From Octopus vulgaris (Eukaryota), in NCBI GenBank assembly GCA_951406725.2, contig OX597818.1:7378001-7442000 (forward strand): a DNA stretch of 64,000 bases, in the 5' to 3' direction. Shown in pieces: positions 26,767 through 62,620 of the stretch. Each line of letters begins with the position of its first letter. Position 1 is the stretch's first letter. The position numbers and the translations under genes were made by a program. A model generated the notes under the pieces. It was given only the letters and a program-made list of their open reading frames with translations, was not told the DNA's origin and ran no database searches.

Positions 26767-27950
26767 CACTGAACCGCAAAAGAAACGCGAGATACACGTG
26801 ACTGTGAAATATGTTCTAATTTCATTATGCTAGAAATAAATTTTGATAAATCTGATAAAGTCAGTTTCTTGGATGCACTTTGACCACAGTCTATGGGTCG
26901 TGGTCATGTGTTTTGGTAGTGGGCGGATCCAGTACATCGAAATTGTAGGACGTGACAAGTTCACCTCCATGTATTCCCTGGTTGTTCAACACATCGGTAC
27001 ATGGAGTGCATAAAGCGGTTCATAAAACCATTAGCACCCTGAAGAAAGCGCCCTCGAGTTCCACACGAGTTGTCGGCCTTGGGAGCACCTGGCTCAGACG
27101 TCTCTGGATTTCATCCAACAAGTGTTCAATTGGGTTCAAATCCAGGCTGAGAGTCGGCCACGGTATGGTTCTAATGTTGTGCTGTTGTAGGAAATCCATG
27201 ATGGCACTGATCGTGTTGGAGGGAATATTGCCCTGTTGGAACATGTGGCTATGGTGACGCGCGTAGAAGGGCACGGTGTGAGGCCTTAGGATCTGTTCAA
27301 CATAGCACCGTGCTGTGATGCCATTCCGTCTGCCTGCACCAACATTTTGGAACACATGGGGCCCAATTCTCTGCTTCAGGCCTATAGCATCCCAAACCGT
27401 AAAGCTTTGTCTAGCCCATGCTTCTCTCTCCATGACACATGCATCTCTGTAGAGTTCACTCCCCCTCCTACGCCAACCCCCCACTCTGCCATCCGAGGTG
27501 AAAAGGCAGTACCAGCTCTCGTCAGAGAGAACTATCGACCTCCATACTTGATGCCACAAAAGTCGGTGCTGTGTAGCCCACTGTTGTCGTGCCTGATGGT
27601 GGCGGGCGGTGAGGATAGGCCCTCGAGCAGGACGACGGCAACAGAGATTGGTGTCGTTGCTGATGAGTCGCTGTCTAGCGCTAATGATCTCTTGAGCAGT
27701 CACACTGATCGGTCTGAGGCGATCACAGAGGTGTTGCAAGTGGATGAAGCGGTTCTGCCTGGGCGTGGTCACCGGGTAGTGCCTTCTGCGGGCACGGTCT
27801 GCAGTACTGTTGTTGTCGTATCGTTGTTGCAGGCGATAGATGATGCTACCATGAACATTGTAAGCTTTCGCAACAACCAGGGCTCGGTGCCCTGCTTGCA
27901 ATCAGCCGATAGCTTGTTCTCTCTGATCTGCTGACAATCGGGTGATACCT
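26767..27950 (-). mobile_element. Tc1-like DNA transposon with a nearly intact but probably inactive transposase (ORF 27020-27901)
   Basis: 293 aa ORF with HTH region, IVLSDESW, FQQGNIP (second catalytic D replaced by G) and WPTLSLDLNPIEHL. TIR-like cactgaaccgcaaaagaaacgc at 26767; the other end is cut by a LINE insertion. Confidence 0.85.
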
Positions 27951-31313: not shown

Positions 31314-31714
31314 TCTCTCTTTTCTCTCTTTTACTTGTTTCAGTCATTTGACTGCGGCCATGCTGGAGCACCGCCTTTAGCCGAGCAACTCGACCCCGGG
31401 ACTTATTCTTTTGTAAGCCCAGTACTTATTCTATCGGTCTCTTTTACTGAACCGCTAAGTGACGGGGACATAAACACACCAGCATTAGTTGTCAAGCAAT
31501 GCTAGGGGGACAAACGCAGACACACAAACATATCCACACATATATATATATATATACGACAGGCTTCTTTCTGTTTCCGTCTACCAAATCCACTCACAAG
31601 GCATTGGCCGGCCTGGGGATATAGCAGAAGACACTTGCCCAAGATGCCACGCAGTGGGATTGAACCCAGAACCATGTGGTTGGTAAACAAGCTTCTTACC
31701 ACACAGCCACTCCT
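31312..31714 (-). mobile_element. tRNA-derived SINE family A, full length
   Basis: Reverse complement starts aggagtggctgtgtggtaagaagcttg...gggttcaatccc (A and B boxes); highly similar to 37166-37537. Confidence 0.9.
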
Positions 31715-31731
31715 ATATATATATATAGCCA

Positions 31732-31773
<42 letters not shown>

Positions 31774-31776
<3 letters not shown>

Positions 31777-32039
31777 AATATAAGAGAGTGGTCACTATAT
31801 TGCTCACTCTAGCACCAGTTAATCCAAAAGGTTTCAACCACGAAAATACATGCTTACCATGAAAGTCAGTACGATTGTTAGCTCACAGGACAGGGCAAAT
31901 AAAAAATAACAAAAATACAGATTATTTTGGGACAATTGTTTCGCTATTAATGAATTAAATGTAATTTTACTTACAAAAAAAATCCATTTGTAGCTCGTCA
32001 GCCAAGACTATCTGGATGAAATCCACTCAATCACACGCC
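31774..32039 (-). repeat. Inverted partial copy (266 bp) of the 536 bp monomer
   Basis: Near-exact reverse complement of 32193-32458 (one base deleted near 31888; the poly-T run is one base longer than in unit 1). Joins the forward array through a cc microhomology. Confidence 0.95.
31918..32014 (-). ncRNA. Type I hammerhead ribozyme (inverted copy)
   Basis: Reverse complement of the array hammerhead with all core nucleotides intact. Confidence 0.85.
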
Positions 32040-32217
32040 CTTATTAATTAATTATAATTATGCTGCATTTATTTCTAAATGCTGTATTTGTTTTCCGTGA
32101 AAGTTTGGCGCGCTGTTGGTTGGGGCATTTGAATTATAACGTCGGATGTAATCAATTGAACCACACGCGTATTTATCGTTATGGTAAAATCTGGCGTGTG
32201 ATTGAGTGGATTTCATC

Positions 32218-32313
32218 CAGATAGTCTTGGCTGACGAGCTACAAATGGATTTTTTTGTAAGTAAAATTACATTTAATTCATTAATAGCGAAACAATTGTC
32301 CCAAAATAATCTG
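32218..32313 (+). ncRNA. Type I hammerhead ribozyme, unit 1
   Basis: cagatagtcttgg CTGACGA gcta...tagc GAAA caattg TC ccaaaataatctg. Stem I UUGG/CCAA, internal loop, then CAGAU/AUCUG; stem II GCUA/UAGC extended; stem III palindrome ACAAUUGU; GUC cleavage after 32300. Confidence 0.9.
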
Positions 32314-32752
32314 TATTTTTGTTATTTTTTATTTGCCCTGTCCGTGTGAGCTAACAATCGTACTGACTTTCATGGTAAGCATGTATTTTCGTGGTTGAAA
32401 CCTTTTGGATTAACTGGTGCTAGAGTGAGCAATATAGTGACCACTCTCTTATATTTATTTTGTAAAAATATTATAATATGTTATAAAATATTATAATAAT
32501 CCAGGTTTCTCGAAGCACTAGGCCACTTGGTGTTGAATAAATATACTATTAAATTAGTATCTAATTCTCTCACCCTTATTAATTAATTATAATTATGCTG
32601 CATTTATTTCTAAATGCTGTATTTGTTTTCCGTGAAAGTTTGGCGCGCTGTTGGTTGGGGCATTTGAATTATAACGTCGGATGTAATCAATTGAACCACA
32701 CGCGTATTTATCGTTATGGTAAAATCTGGCGTGTGATTGAGTGGATTTCATC

Positions 32753-32848
32753 CAGATAGTCTTGGCTGACGAGCTACAAATGGATTTTTTTGTAAGTAAA
32801 ATTACATTTAATTCATTAATAGCGAAACAATTGTCCCAAAATAATCTG
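32753..32848 (+). ncRNA. Type I hammerhead ribozyme, unit 2
   Basis: Same motif; CTGACGA at 32766, cleavage after 32835. Confidence 0.9.
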
Positions 32849-33287
32849 TATTTTTGTTATTTTTTATTTGCCCTGTCCGTGTGAGCTAACAATCGTACTG
32901 ACTTTCATGGTAAGCATGTATTTTCGTGGTTGAAACCTTTTGGATTAACTGGCGCTAGAGTGAGCAATATAGTGACCACTCTCTTATATTTATTTTGTAA
33001 AAATATAATAATATGTTATAAAATATTATAATAATCCAGGTTTCTCGAAGCACTAGGCCACTTGGTGTTGAATAAATATACTATTAAATTAGTATCTAAT
33101 TCTCTCACCCTTATTAATTAATTATAATTATGCTGCATTTATTTCTAAATGCTGTATTTGTTTTCCGTGAAAGTTTGGCGCGCTGTTGGTTGGGGCATTT
33201 GAATTATAACGTCGGATGTAATCAATTGAACCACACGCGTATTTATCGTTATGGTAAAATCTGGCGTGTGATTGAGTGGATTTCATC

Positions 33288-33384
33288 CAGATAGTCTTGG
33301 CTGACGAGCTACAAATGGATTTTTTTTGTAAGTAAAATTACATTTAATTCATTAATAGCGAAACAATTGTCCCAAAATAATCTG
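33288..33384 (+). ncRNA. Type I hammerhead ribozyme, unit 3
   Basis: CTGACGA at 33301, cleavage after 33371. Confidence 0.9.
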
Positions 33385-33823
33385 TATTTTTGTTATTTTT
33401 TATTTGCCCTGTCCGTGTGAGCTAACAATCGTACTGACTTTCATGGTAAGCATGTATTTTCGTGGTTGAAACCTTTTGGATTAACTGGTGCTAGAGTGAG
33501 CAATATAGTGACCACTCTCTTATATTTATTTTGTAAAAATATTATAATATGTTATAAAATATTATAATAATCCAGGTTTCTCGAAGCACTAGGCCACTTG
33601 GTGTTGAATAAATATACTATTAAATTAGTATCTAATTCTCTCACCCTTATTAATTAATTATAATTATGCTGCATTTATTTCTAAATGCTGTATTTGTTTT
33701 CCGTGAAAGTTTGGCGCGCTGTTGGTTGGGGCATTTGAATTATAACGTCGGATGTAATCAATTGAACCACACGCGTATTTATCGTTATGGTAAAATCTGG
33801 CGTGTGATTGAGTGGATTTCATC

Positions 33824-33920
33824 CAGATAGTCTTGGCTGACGAGCTACAAATGGATTTTTTTTGTAAGTAAAATTACATTTAATTCATTAATAGCGAAAC
33901 AATTGTCCCAAAATAATCTG
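33824..33920 (+). ncRNA. Type I hammerhead ribozyme, unit 4
   Basis: CTGACGA at 33837, cleavage after 33907. Confidence 0.9.
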
Positions 33921-34359
33921 TATTTTTGTTATTTTTTATTTGCCCTGTCCGTGTGAGCTAACAATCGTACTGACTTTCATGGTAAGCATGTATTTTCGTG
34001 GTTGAAACCTTTTGGATTAACTGGTGCTAGAGTGAGCAATATAGTGACCACTCTCTTATATTTATTTTGTAAAAATATTATAATATGTTATAAAATATTA
34101 TAATAATCCAGGTTTCTCGAAGCACTAGGCCACTTGGTGTTGAATAAATATACTATTAAATTAGTATCTAATTCTCTCACCCTTATTAATTAATTATAAT
34201 TATGCTGCATTTATTTCTAAATGCTGTATTTGTTTTCCGTGAAAGTTTGGCGCGCTGTTGGTTGGGGCATTTGAATTATAACGTCGGATGTAATCAATTG
34301 AACCACACGCGTATTTATCGTTATGGTAAAATCTGGCGTGTGATTGAGTGGATTTCATC

Positions 34360-34456
34360 CAGATAGTCTTGGCTGACGAGCTACAAATGGATTTTTTTTG
34401 TAAGTAAAATTACATTTAATTCATTAATAGCGAAACAATTGTCCCAAAATAATCTG
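34360..34456 (+). ncRNA. Type I hammerhead ribozyme, unit 5
   Basis: CTGACGA at 34373, cleavage after 34443. Confidence 0.9.
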
Positions 34457-34894
34457 TATTTTTGTTATTTTTTATTTGCCCTGTCCGTGTGAGCTAACAA
34501 TCGTACTGACTTTCATGGTAAGCATGTATTTTCGTGGTTGAAACCTTTTGGATTAACTGGTGCTAGAGTGAGCAATATAGTGACCACTCTCTTATATTTA
34601 TTTTGTAAAAATATAATAATATGTTATAAAATATTATAATAATCCAGGTTTCTCGAAGCACTAGGCCACTTGGTGTTGAATAAATATACTATTAAATTAG
34701 TATCTAATTCTCTCACCTTATTAATTAATTATAATTATGCTGCATTTATTTCTAAATGCTGTATTTGTTTTCCGTGAAAGTTTGGCGCGCTGTTGGTTGG
34801 GGCATTTGAATTATAACGTCGGATGTAATCAATTGAACCACACGCGTATTTATCGTTATGGTAAAATCTGGCGTGTGATTGAGTGGATTTCATC

Positions 34895-34991
34895 CAGATA
34901 GTCTTGGCTGACGAGCTACAAATGGATTTTTTTTGTAAGTAAAATTACATTTAATTCATTAATAGCGAAACAATTGTCCCAAAATAATCTG
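34895..34991 (+). ncRNA. Type I hammerhead ribozyme, unit 6
   Basis: CTGACGA at 34908, cleavage after 34978. Confidence 0.9.
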
Positions 34992-35430
34992 TATTTTTGT
35001 TATTTTTTATTTGCCCTGTCCGTGTGAGCTAACAATCGTACTGACTTTCATGGTAAGCATGTATTTTCGTGGTTGAAACCTTTTGGATTAACTGGTGCTA
35101 GAGTGAGCAATATAGTGACCACTCTCTTATATTTATTTTGTAAAAATATTATAATATGTTATAAAATATTATAATAATCCAGGTTTCTCGAAGCACTAGG
35201 CCACTTGGTGTTGAATAAATATACTATTAAATTAGTATCTAATTCTCTCACCCTTATTAATTAATTATAATTATGCTGCATTTATTTCTAAATGCTGTAT
35301 TTGTTTTCCGTGAAAGTTTGGCGCGCTGTTGGTTGGGGCATTTGAATTATAACGTCGGATGTAATCAATTGAACCACACGCGTATTTATCGTTATGGTAA
35401 AATCTGGCGTGTGATTGAGTGGATTTCATC

Positions 35431-35527
35431 CAGATAGTCTTGGCTGACGAGCTACAAATGGATTTTTTTTGTAAGTAAAATTACATTTAATTCATTAATA
35501 GCGAAACAATTGTCCCAAAATAATCTG
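35431..35527 (+). ncRNA. Type I hammerhead ribozyme, unit 7
   Basis: CTGACGA at 35444, cleavage after 35514. Confidence 0.9.
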
Positions 35528-35966
35528 TATTTTTGTTATTTTTTATTTGCCCTGTCCGTGTGAGCTAACAATCGTACTGACTTTCATGGTAAGCATGTAT
35601 TTTCGTGGTTGAAACCTTTTGGATTAACTGGTGCTAGAGTGAGCAATATAGTGACCACTCTCTTATATTTATTTTGTAAAAATATTATAATATGTTATAA
35701 AATATTATAATAATCCAGGTTTCTCGAAGCACTAGGCCACTTGGTGTTGAATAAATATACTATTAAATTAGTATCTAATTCTCTCACCCTTATTAATTAA
35801 TTATAATTATGCTGCATTTATTTCTAAATGCTGTATTTGTTTTCCGTGAAAGTTTGGCGCGCTGTTGGTTGGGGCATTTGAATTATAACGTCGGATGTAA
35901 TCAATTGAACCACACGCGTATTTATCGTTATGGTAAAATCTGGCGTGTGATTGAGTGGATTTCATC

Positions 35967-36063
35967 CAGATAGTCTTGGCTGACGAGCTACAAATGGATT
36001 TTTTTTGTAAGTAAAATTACATTTAATTCATTAATAGCGAAACAATTGTCCCAAAATAATCTG
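35967..36063 (+). ncRNA. Type I hammerhead ribozyme, unit 8
   Basis: CTGACGA at 35980, cleavage after 36050. Confidence 0.9.
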
Positions 36064-36502
36064 TATTTTTGTTATTTTTTATTTGCCCTGTCCGTGTGAG
36101 CTAACAATCGTACTGACTTTCATGGTAAGCATGTATTTTCGTGGTTGAAACCTTTTGGATTAACTGGTGCTAGAGTGAGCAATATAGTGACCACTCTCTT
36201 ATATTTATTTTGTAAAAATATTATAATATGTTATAAAATATTATAATAATCCAGGTTTCTCGAAGCACTAGGCCACTTGGTGTTGAATAAATATACTATT
36301 AAATTAGTATCTAATTCTCTCACCCTTATTAATTAATTATAATTATGCTGCATTTATTTCTAAATGCTGTATTTGTTTTCCGTGAAAGTTTGGCGCGCTG
36401 TTGGTTGGGGCATTTGAATTATAACGTCGGATGTAATCAATTGAACCACACGCGTATTTATCGTTATGGTAAAATCTGGCGTGTGATTGAGTGGATTTCA
36501 TC

Positions 36503-36599
36503 CAGATAGTCTTGGCTGACGAGCTACAAATGGATTTTTTTTGTAAGTAAAATTACATTTAATTCATTAATAGCGAAACAATTGTCCCAAAATAATCTG
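36503..36599 (+). ncRNA. Type I hammerhead ribozyme, unit 9
   Basis: CTGACGA at 36516, cleavage after 36586. Confidence 0.9.
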
Positions 36600-36868
36600 T
36601 ATTTTTGTTATTTTTTATTTGCCCTGTCCGTGTGAGCTAACAATCGTACTGATTTTCATGGTAAGCATGTATTTTCGTGGTTGAAACCTTTTGGATTAAC
36701 TGGTGCTAGAGTGAGCAATATAGTGACCACTCTCTTATATTTATTTTGTAAAAATATTATAATATGTTATAAAATATTATAATAATCCAGGTTTCTCGAA
36801 GCACTAGGCCACTTGGTGTTGAATAAATATACTATTAAATTAGTATCTAATTCTCTCACCCTTATTAA

Positions 36869-36919
<51 letters not shown>

Positions 36920-37151
36920 GCGGCAAGCTGGCAGACACGTCGTTAGCGCGCCGGGCGAAATGCTTAGCGGTATTTCGTCTGTCGTTACGTTCTGAGTTCA
37001 AATTCCACCGAGGTCAACTTTGCCTTTCATCCTTTTGGGGTCGATAAATAAAGTACCAGCTTCGCACAGGGGGTGATATAATAGACTCAATCCCTTCGTC
37101 TGTCCTTGTTTGTCCCCTCTATGTTTAGCCCCTTGTGGGCAGTAAAGAAAT
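36920..37151 (+). mobile_element. SINE family B
   Basis: Homologous to 16045-16278 along its length. Confidence 0.85.
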
Positions 37152-37165
37152 ATATATATATTATA

Positions 37166-37535
37166 GGCGCAGGAGTGGCTGTGTGGTAAGTAGCTTGCTA
37201 ACCAACCACACGGTTGCGGGTTCAGTCCCACTGCGTGGCATCTTGGGCAAGTGTCTTCTGCTATAGCTCCGGGCCGACCAATGCCTTGTGAGTGGATTTG
37301 GTAGACGGAAACTGAAAGAAGCCTGTCGTATATATGTATATATATATATGTATGCGTGTGTTTGTGTGTCTGTGTTTGTCCCCCTAGCATTGCTTGACAA
37401 CCGATGCTGGTGTATTTAGGTCCCCGTCACATAGCGGTTCGGCAAAAAGAGACCGATAGAATAAGTACTAAAAGGTGGTGCTCCAGCATGGCCGCAGTCG
37501 GGTGACTGAAACAAGTGAAAGAGAGAGAGTAAAGA

Positions 37536-61779: not shown

Positions 61780-62316
61780 GTTATTATTATTATTATTATT
61801 ATATATTTATTTATTTATTTATATATATTTTGATTACTCAGTATAGAATTTTAAAAGTTTTTTCATAGATAAATATGTATAGCGCCATTTCATTCATGAC
61901 ATAGTAAGGAATAAATGAATTAAACTAAATCAAAGATTGTACGAAGCGAAGCATTTCTGAAAGATGAGATGTGAAATCTCATCCATTTGAAGAATAATCA
62001 CAACTCTTCAAACGTGGGAACATTTTGAATAGAATTGTTAATGGTGATGCATGTTAAATTTCAAGAGGAAGAGGGGGGAATTTTACATTTGTAGATGTTC
62101 AGTTGACTGTGTTGCTACTCCGGTATTAATACTGATATCAATGAGCATAATGATCATCATCGTAATAGATGCTATTATAAGGGTATTGTAGATGATGGTA
62201 GCAACGGCGATGGTGACGGCAAGAACGACAACATCAATGATACCAATGATGGTGATGAAGACAACAACAATATGTCTGACACACAATTATTACACATACC
62301 CTTGGGATCAAGTGAA

Positions 62317-62620
62317 GGTGCGTAGCTTAGTGGCTAGAGTGTTCGACTCACGATTGTAAGGTCCTGAATTCGAATCTCGGTGGTGCTTTGTGTCCCTTGA
62401 GCAAGACACATTATTTCACGTTACTCCAGTTCACTCAGCTGGCAAAAATGGGTAGTACCTGCATTTCATAGGGTCATCTTTGTCATATATTGTGCTACGC
62501 TGAGTCATTCTAAGAATAACGTTAAGGGTATGCGCGCTGTGGTGGTGGTGTAAGGGTCTTAGCCGCTTGCATGTTAATTTCACAACCAACTAGTATCCTT
62601 GTCGTCGTAACCGACTGAGT
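62317..62620 (+). mobile_element. tRNA-derived SINE family C
   Basis: Homologous to 38553-38845 (gtagcttagtggctaga..ttcgaatc..ccttgagcaagacacattatttcacgtt..ttgcatgttaattt). Confidence 0.75.

Follow-up and report, generated by a model that had tools for sequence, protein, structure and literature searches.

The window, a stretch of 64,000 nucleotides of Octopus vulgaris DNA (contig OX597818.1), contains an array of 536-bp units arranged in two arms of opposite orientation. The direct arm on the plus strand (32038..36877) comprises 9.03 units and extends from unit position 273 to 291, the site B end. The inverted arm on the minus strand (31774..32039) is 5'-truncated and runs from unit position 428 to 158, the site A end. 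The arms overlap at their junction by a microhomology of 2 nt (32038..32039). Both outer ends of the array border on (TA)n target tracts, the left one (31714..31773) flanking the inverted arm and the right one (36878..36919) the direct arm. SINE-like repeats in the flanks are in keeping with a cephalopod host. Thus the nine head-to-tail units that the earlier note had placed from 31774 onward were confirmed for the direct arm, while the stretch up to 32039 turned out to be inverted.

Unit positions are numbered from 33372, the start of a reference unit on the plus strand (33372..33907) that reaches from cut site to cut site and corresponds to the predicted 536-nt monomer RNA. The last unit of the direct arm carries a 'tail' of about 130 nt on the plus strand (36744..36877), which is bounded by the start sites A (unit 158-161) and B (unit 285-291). 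The units are near-identical, as had been proposed; the eight complete cut-to-cut units differ at 0-3 positions, and five of them are identical. They are also non-coding, since no open reading frame exceeded 69 codons from stop to stop on either strand of the unit. The GC content is low at 32%. Tandem Repeats Finder did not detect the array because its period limit was 500.

The hammerhead ribozyme

Nine CTGACGA cores on the plus strand, from 32231 to 36516, and nine predicted C17 cut sites at 32300, 32835, 33371, 33907, 34443, 34978, 35514, 36050 and 36586 (spacing 535-536) reproduced the positions of the earlier note exactly. In the representative hammerhead (33833..33911, plus strand) stem I pairs 33833-36 with 33908-11, the core lies at 33837-43, an extended stem II with a conserved apical hairpin spans 33844-33895, and GAAA (33896-99) and stem III (33899-33906) precede C17 at 33907. 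A tenth complete type I hammerhead is located within the inverted arm (31927..32005, minus strand; core 32001, C17 31931). Folding indicated type I topology, which sets the unit apart from LTR-retrozymes with their type III hammerhead in LTRs.

The hammerhead pattern had 2,023 matches genome-wide against 0 in the reversed control, and folding of the unit gave z = -6.7 against shuffles. Thus we concluded that the hammerhead array did not arise by chance. A search with Rfam, a check that had been suggested for the array, yielded no hammerhead at the gathering score in the whole window and none at E up to 10 in one unit; probably the extended stem II defeats the model. Compared with the sister families L172 and L173, which are 61-62% identical, four of four stem I pairs were altered on both sides, in a comparison of only three sequences, all selected for a common stem III. 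Because the position-based loci were picked by the exact hammerhead pattern, the conservation of their core is in part a product of this choice.

Stem III is a short palindrome that is unpaired in the predicted monomer fold, and the active monomer fold is 5.6 kcal/mol costlier than the predicted one. Because stem III is weak and palindromic, i.e. of the dimer type, these folding models leave it uncertain whether transcripts would be cut cleanly into monomers. The main text of a 2026 preprint reports cleavage for one of nine tested retrozyme dimers (bioRxiv 10.64898/2026.07.22.740005).

A dispersed family

A genome search with the unit, likewise suggested earlier, revealed 242 matches in 40 scored candidates (of 929) on many contigs; the whole family is estimated at about 800-900 loci. 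Distances among 182 full units from 58 loci were 0.22% within the same arm, 0.25% between opposite arms and 1.84% between loci. The 38 multi-unit loci represented 25 haplotypes. Twelve private variants at 10 loci were fixed in all units, with one of these loci having full units in both arms. In the sequence of the sampled loci each insertion carries one haplotype. The array of the window belongs, as a single copy, to a family of 536-base ribozyme repeats that is young and spread over the genome.

Tandem non-coding units with a type I hammerhead and a dispersed low-GC family sustain the proposal that the array is a retrozyme, and a recent origin by reverse transcription is backed by the array ends and by the similarity of arms relative to that between loci. 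No ORF attached to the unit was found in the flank of L032 or in 30 position-sampled loci. Long frames at the position-sampled loci were simple repeats or apparent LINE pieces. More than half of the unit's words were present in 20 of 21 listed public runs (8 studies, three organism labels), whose RNA status was guessed, so that this count does not bear on expression.

Insertion ends and the two-arm rule

The 3' ends of the arms are fixed at two sites, A at unit 158-161 and B at unit 285-291, and (TA)4 or more was present within 30 nt of 109 of 113 outer ends. Two-armed copies, which form long perfect inverted repeats, occurred at 44 of 70 sampled loci. All 39 clean two-arm loci among the 70 combined one A end with one B end (20 A/B, 19 B/A); the chance of this outcome is 2^-39, about 2e-12. 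Five further two-arm loci read manually were all A+B as well. At the arm junctions (n = 39) we observed 24 overlaps of 1-6 nt, 4 blunt joints and 11 inserts. Target duplications were readable at two loci, with 16 bp at L157 and 8 bp at L144.

Arm length reached about 12.7 units. The cut site was crossed by 96 of 110 arms, and 72 of 110 crossed at least two cut sites. Both arms of an inverted pair frequently comprised several units and had a single haplotype. The number of units was fractional, the 5' truncations being near-random with the 3' ends fixed. The offsets between the 5' ends of the two arms were uniform (41 loci, KS p = 0.81). The footprint of these insertions, read from sequence, points to a Penelope-like element (PLE) that primed on both target strands and used two internal start sites. 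The mechanism proposed below rests on features that were absent from the earlier note, namely the inverted arm, the genome-wide family and the Penelope-type ends.

L1-style sequential twin priming and fold-back priming were rejected, since the 5' ends of the two arms bear no relation to one another or to sites A and B. The unit lacks an RT-EN ORF and is not an autonomous PLE. Near the cut site 5' ends were somewhat more numerous, with 9 of 110 where 4.3 were expected (p = 0.03 for a window set post hoc), but this effect was weak and not robust, with a max-window p of 0.90.

Candidate helper elements

Of 6,136 GIY-YIG candidates 150 were scored, and homology of the retrozyme to the pLTRs of PLEs was compared for three families; it was not significant. 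Among the candidates, the Hydra-clade PLE L180 has an intact 841-aa frame. By eye we identified RWK-like, DKT, CxCX5C, CxxC and CxH motifs, together with a GIY-YIG at the C terminus that lacks CCHH; Pfam gave no match for the C-terminal 471 aa. L180 has a hammerhead and (TA)n targets and follows the A+B rule, and simple two-arm insertions of Hydra-type PLEs were A+B in seven of seven cases. Several copies have frames of 822-862 aa with 86-99% identity to the query. L180 measures about 6.3 kb per unit and has an Asn-rich insert as well as a long 3' region; in this it differs from Hydra-clade PLEs as described in PMC8557442, which are generally <3 kb according to the parts of that paper covering them. 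The PLE metadata of Craig 2021 (PMC8557442) include at least four cephalopod Naiads.

The Hydra PLE end has a long tail and shares with the retrozyme a motif about 22 nt before site A, which is short and was spotted post hoc. Local alignment of this end with the retrozyme was not significant (z = 0.6 when the hammerhead was included and 2.0 for the sequence downstream). The identical stem III of the Hydra PLE was a search criterion and hence is not independent evidence. We cautiously favor an intact Hydra-clade PLE as the most likely helper.

The helper might instead be a Neptune-like PLE, either the 781-aa family (L100-L108) with its many intact copies or L109/L112, or else an unsampled family. 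We lean against this alternative but consider it a real possibility: both Neptune-like groups have (TA)n ends and hammerhead-like motifs, and the 3' end of L109 gave the best alignment to the retrozyme (z 4.5 and 2.8). Yet this match is mostly AT-rich, low-complexity sequence and was absent in the sister families L172 and L173 (z 0.7 and 0.4), while the motif before site A and the long tail speak for the Hydra end.

Proposed mechanism

Taken together, the data make it very probable that the array is a Penelope-like element that is young, non-autonomous and of the non-LTR retrozyme type. In the mechanism that we propose the hammerhead would likely cut array transcripts, probably as dimers via the palindromic stem III or with the help of protein, and the monomers may well be ligated to circles. 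An RT/GIY-YIG protein of a PLE, probably a dimer, would bind the A-B region and cut (TA)n in a staggered manner; cDNA would be primed at A by one nick and at B by the second, with a single RNA or two RNAs of one haplotype as template. We hold this step with good confidence. A Poseidon PLE studied in vitro has two internal RT start sites and extends both strands (PMC11167929). Each cDNA would then extend for a random length, at most about 12.7 units, with either a circle or a multimer as its template. With such extension over several units, arrays would be formed at insertion. The two cDNAs would be joined head-to-head by microhomology; if one were lost, the remaining single arm would join the target directly.

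In its most specific form, which we put forward tentatively, the mechanism would make each insertion the trace of a single RNA circle produced by the ribozyme. A dimeric Hydra-clade Penelope protein could have read this circle from two fixed sites 130 nt apart, each subunit serving one target strand and both going round for as many as a dozen laps. If this were true, the family would offer direct evidence from a genome that rolling-circle double priming is the general source of the tandem and inverted structure of PLEs, and the helper would recognise RNA structure, not shared sequence.

Circles would be unneeded, and the hammerhead dispensable for mobility, if PLE double priming took place on a linear transcript of several units that is uncut or partly cut. 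In vitro, a Poseidon PLE accepts RNA that has not been processed, and mutants of the hammerhead remain able to insert (PMC11167929), which agrees with a linear template, as do the weak stem III, the slightly raised number of 5' ends around the cut site and the heterogeneous arrays L053, L046 and L047. In L053 minor variants recur and in part show a period of 4, as would result from a multimeric template or from duplication at a later time, but the variants of its two arms are out of register. Furthermore, 25 haplotypes at 38 loci with variants fixed array-wide call for a monomer bottleneck and re-amplification, arms are up to 12.7 units long despite random truncation, and the hammerhead has been kept with compensatory changes across the diverged sister families. 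Thus we regard the linear template as rather unlikely, though far from negligible.

The inverted arm may alternatively stem from fold-back self-priming of the first cDNA, as in the model of Arkhipova et al. 2013 (PMC3846280); inverted PLE repeats with palindromic junctions have been described. Near-symmetric junctions were few here, 6 of 41 being within 30 nt, and this number matches chance (4.7; KS p = 0.81). Fold-back leaves the strict A+B pairing unexplained. Moreover, in the Hydra insertions L160 and L161 it is the longer arm that lacks the tail, so that neither arm can have been copied from the other. We consider fold-back improbable. About as improbable is a satellite-like origin, i.e. 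single PLE terminal repeats that were inserted and then multiplied by local unequal crossing-over, a scenario given in bioRxiv 10.64898/2026.07.22.740005. It could account for the minor variants common to several units in a few arrays (window 172, L136, L144, L053), but not readily for paired arms that are often multi-unit with a single haplotype or for fractional unit numbers with fixed 3' and random 5' ends, and no ORF-bearing parent with the unit was present among the 70 retrozyme loci and the compared PLE loci. An assembly artefact at the array locus, which the near-identical units and a copy number taken from the assembly rather than from raw long reads might suggest, can practically be dismissed, as 70 loci, whose flanks are unique, show the same architecture and the contigs of four of four public sequencing runs contain the head-to-tail joints, which exist in DNA too, and those of three of four the B-end-to-(TA)n junctions.

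Compared with known systems, the Octopus unit joins the known non-LTR retrozymes, with an unusually clear mechanistic footprint. Those of animals, as presented in the main texts of PMC7229834 and bioRxiv 10.64898/2026.07.22.740005, are likewise tandem non-coding units with a type I hammerhead, low in GC, dispersed and variable in unit number, in genomes with PLEs. The earlier note had called the monomer large for an animal retrozyme; yet 536 bp falls inside the 51-972 bp that the preprint gives for vertebrate and invertebrate consensus lengths. In the two main texts there is no description of a family from cephalopods, of inverted arms, of fixed ends at two sites or of target duplications, and our literature search agreed with the earlier note in finding no cephalopod family, although the supplements of both might list one or might list inverted copies. 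Mobilisation by a PLE RT acting on circles is proposed in both. In the preprint's main text the link to PLEs is pLTR homology, whereas here it is the insertion footprint, with no homologous pLTR among three families. Circles have been shown in coral, mussel and axolotl according to these texts, while the Octopus unit is known from DNA.

Endonuclease-bearing PLEs, in the portions of PMC3846280, PMC8557442 and PMC11167929 dealing with their insertions, resemble the retrozyme in partial tandems, an adjacent inverted 5'-truncated copy, a tail that one of the inverted arms carries, (TA)n targets, target duplications of variable length and two internal RT start sites. The retrozyme differs by having no ORF, a tail of about 130 instead of 30-40 nt and two arms that are both multi-unit. 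The one-tail rule is strict in the retrozyme (39 of 39) but optional or frequent in the PLEs described in those portions. MRC1 and other non-autonomous Chlamys elements are also non-autonomous with multicopy head-to-tail insertions; unlike the Octopus unit they are from green algae, usually 3'-similar to an autonomous family and mostly without canonical hammerheads, as far as the relevant part of PMC8557442 goes.

The sections of PMC8557442 on PLE insertions name as unresolved how PLEs build tandem and inverted insertions, and the mobility route of retrozymes is a hypothesis in the main texts of PMC7229834 and bioRxiv 10.64898/2026.07.22.740005. The present family is young and numerous, so that each insertion is still legible as a reaction product. 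It offers a strict rule of one A end, one B end and one haplotype together with exact start sites, and since its 536-nt template is defined and candidate enzymes are intact, the spread of a retrozyme becomes testable in vitro.

Finally, if the specific form of the mechanism held, hundreds of perfect inverted repeats would supply A-to-I editing in the host. There was no excess of A>G among genomic variants (10 of 97 unit-private changes). One sequencing run showed A>G/T>C changes that resemble editing, and the two-armed copies are a possible source of edited double-stranded RNA.

Structure of the array in the window

The nine hammerhead cores and nine cut sites named in the earlier note were located at exactly the coordinates it had given, 535-536 nt apart. 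Its simple head-to-tail array of nine units at 31774-36877 was kept as to the nine hammerheads and given up as to the span, which begins with an inverted copy at 31774-32039 (minus strand; unit positions 428 to 158, counted from window 33372) that holds a tenth hammerhead. The direct arm on the plus strand (32038-36877) comprises 9.03 units from unit position 273 to 291, and (TA)n adjoins the array at both outer ends. The eight complete units differ at 0-3 positions. The longest ORF in the unit has at most 69 codons, and the unit folds far more stably than shuffled sequences (z = -6.7). The array is flanked by older dispersed repeats at 31331-31715 and 36916-37520 with further copies within the window.

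Insertion footprint of the retrozyme family

A genome search with the unit yielded 242 matches within the best 40 of 929 candidate places, and the exact hammerhead pattern matched 2,023 times genome-wide versus 0 for the control. The first 100 pattern matches belonged to 30 loci across about 100 Mb, from which we extrapolate roughly 800-900 family loci in the genome. Seventy loci were analysed, 40 picked by similarity (window included) and 30 by position.

The outer ends of the insertions fell at unit position 158-161 (site A) or 285-291 (site B), with (TA)4 or more beyond 109 of 113 ends. All 39 clean two-armed loci called automatically among the 70 had one A and one B end (chance probability 2^-39), split 20 and 19 between the two orientations, and manual reading added five A+B loci (L036, L040, L061, L153, L158). 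Single-armed loci numbered 25 of the 70; the nested locus L130 was excluded. Target duplications were seen at sites not made up of TA alone, 16 bp long at L157 and 8 bp at L144. The junctions between the arms (n = 39) had overlaps of 1-6 nt in 24 cases, were blunt in 4 and carried inserts in 11. The 5' ends of 110 arms were spread near-uniformly round the unit; 96 of these arms crossed a cut site and 72 at least two. A and B arms were alike in length with maxima of 6.6 and 6.8 kb. Near the cut site, 5' ends were weakly enriched (9 vs 4.3, p = 0.03 post hoc; max-window p = 0.90). Fold-back priming is disfavoured by the uniform offsets between the 5' ends of the two arms (41 loci, p = 0.81).

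Inverted arms with a tail, i.e. the segment between A and B, on one side only are shared with PLE insertions, for which they are described in the portions of PMC3846280 and PMC8557442 used here. In the portion used of PMC11167929, a Poseidon PLE is reported to extend on both strands in vitro from two internal start sites, with the tail between them, the hammerhead being dispensable. We consider it likely that PLE-driven double priming generates the octopus insertions. Array transcripts would be cut by the hammerhead, probably as dimers, and the monomers may circularise. A PLE protein would make a staggered cut in (TA)n, cDNA synthesis would be primed at A on one strand and at B on the other, and after extension over random lengths microhomology would join the two cDNAs.

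Animal retrozymes and their proposed mobilisation by PLEs are known from the sections consulted of PMC7229834 and bioRxiv 2026.07.22.740005, and the octopus family shares the tandem hammerhead units of the non-LTR retrozymes treated there. No report of a cephalopod retrozyme was found in the literature searched, mainly the main texts of open-access papers. The family is valuable for its footprint, which is strict, can be counted, links a retrozyme with PLE enzymes and sets out an experiment.

A probable single template for each insertion

For the 182 full units compared, which came from 58 loci, units of the same arm were 0.22% apart, those of opposite arms 0.25% and those of different loci 1.84%. 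The 38 multi-unit loci comprised 25 haplotypes, and private variants were fixed across all units at 10 loci, only one of which had full units on both arms. Taken together these data favour a bottleneck of one monomer followed by re-amplification, as from a circle, without proving the circle. In two arrays the same unit position was changed recurrently (position 502 in L046, with two different letters; positions 193, 285 and 335 in L053). A multimeric template or repeated misreading of one template base could be the source. The arrays at L053, L046 and L047 are heterogeneous, that of L053 partly with a period of 4, and so leave the circle short of proof. On balance we lean slightly towards a circular template for retrozyme cDNA.

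Candidate helper elements

Intact PLEs of the genome included two Neptune-like families, their clade being called from motifs and not from a tree. One of them, an RT/GIY-YIG family (L100-L108), is abundant. Its 781-aa frame is intact, two copies have a further frame of 479 aa upstream, and by eye there is a hammerhead-like motif near the 3' end in which U3-A8 replaces C3-G8. Further hammerheads sharing the stem III of the retrozyme were sought with a pattern, which gave 1,834 matches versus 21 in the control. Many of these represent a third PLE family with an intact copy at L180 (G000:C4:127710800-127718800; about 6.3 kb per unit), whose 841-aa frame bears Hydra-clade motifs as listed by Craig et al. 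Together with its relatives L160-L165 it forms a young family with several intact copies, an Asn-rich insert in the 841-aa frame, a 3.5-kb 3' region and a tail of about 80 nt. All seven simple two-armed insertions of the Hydra type were A+B; a locus with a truncated end and two nested ones did not enter the count. In L160 and L161 the tail is absent from the longer arm, which indicates independent priming of each arm. The Hydra PLE and all three retrozyme families have a short motif in common, some 22 nt ahead of site A. Yet, the overall alignment of the Hydra PLE end with the retrozyme was not significant (z 0.6-2.0) and a Neptune-like end outscored it, on AT-rich sequence. Thus the Hydra-clade PLE is our best guess for the helper, at little better than even chances.

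At L137 a single (TA)n region contains a nested retrozyme arm and three Hydra-type ends, which suggests that the same targets are used repeatedly. A frame of 635 aa at L167:2833-4737 (-), which bears an RT and has a PLE-like C-terminus, represents a further family.

Predicted hammerhead ribozyme

An Rfam search did not detect the hammerhead of the array. It consists of a canonical core, a 4-pair stem I, a long stem II with an apical hairpin and an 8-nt palindrome as stem III. In the predicted folds of monomer and circle the core was paired with the strand of stem III. Compared with the predicted monomer fold, the active one was less stable by 5.6 kcal/mol. Co-folding predicted that two copies join via the palindrome, and stems of this kind are dimer-active with low activity according to the part of PMC4209133 used.

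Two sister retrozyme families of the same unit size, L172 (L172:500-1100, -; 62% identity; period 532) and L173 (L173:530-1020, -; 61%), keep the core, have a nearly invariant apical stem II hairpin and end in (TA)n at sites resembling B and A. In the three-sequence alignment, changes on both sides affected all 4 pairs of stem I and two pairs of stem II, and 95.8% of the cells pair versus 28-42% in slid controls. The pattern that led to these relatives fixes core and stem III, so that independent evidence comes from stems I and II only. Cleavage by the hammerhead is a prediction.

Hints of transcription and editing

Contigs assembled from four public runs were compared with the unit. In run X2, which has a different organism code and is RNA by our guess, 23 of 28 listed differences (window 33372-33907) were A>G or T>C and 2 were G>A or C>T. 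The corresponding ratios in the two large runs were 3:5 (Fisher p = 0.004 versus X2) and 3:4 (p = 0.012), and run X1 showed no such excess. Twenty of the X2 places were compared with the 182 genomic units: at 16 no unit had the changed letter, and at 4 it occurred in 1-4 units. The changes were clustered, and loose ends were heavily changed. Octopus-type animals edit their RNA heavily. Judged against the assembly rather than matched DNA, the X2 changes resemble A-to-I hyper-editing that affects double-stranded RNA in either orientation; transcripts running through an inverted insertion would leave such a pattern. They hint at transcription rather than at circles.

Elsewhere in the window, a weak tRNA match (62316-62388, plus strand; 30.7 bits) is probably a SINE head, and a 293-codon frame at 27023-27901 (-) resembles a fragment of a Tc1/mariner transposase.
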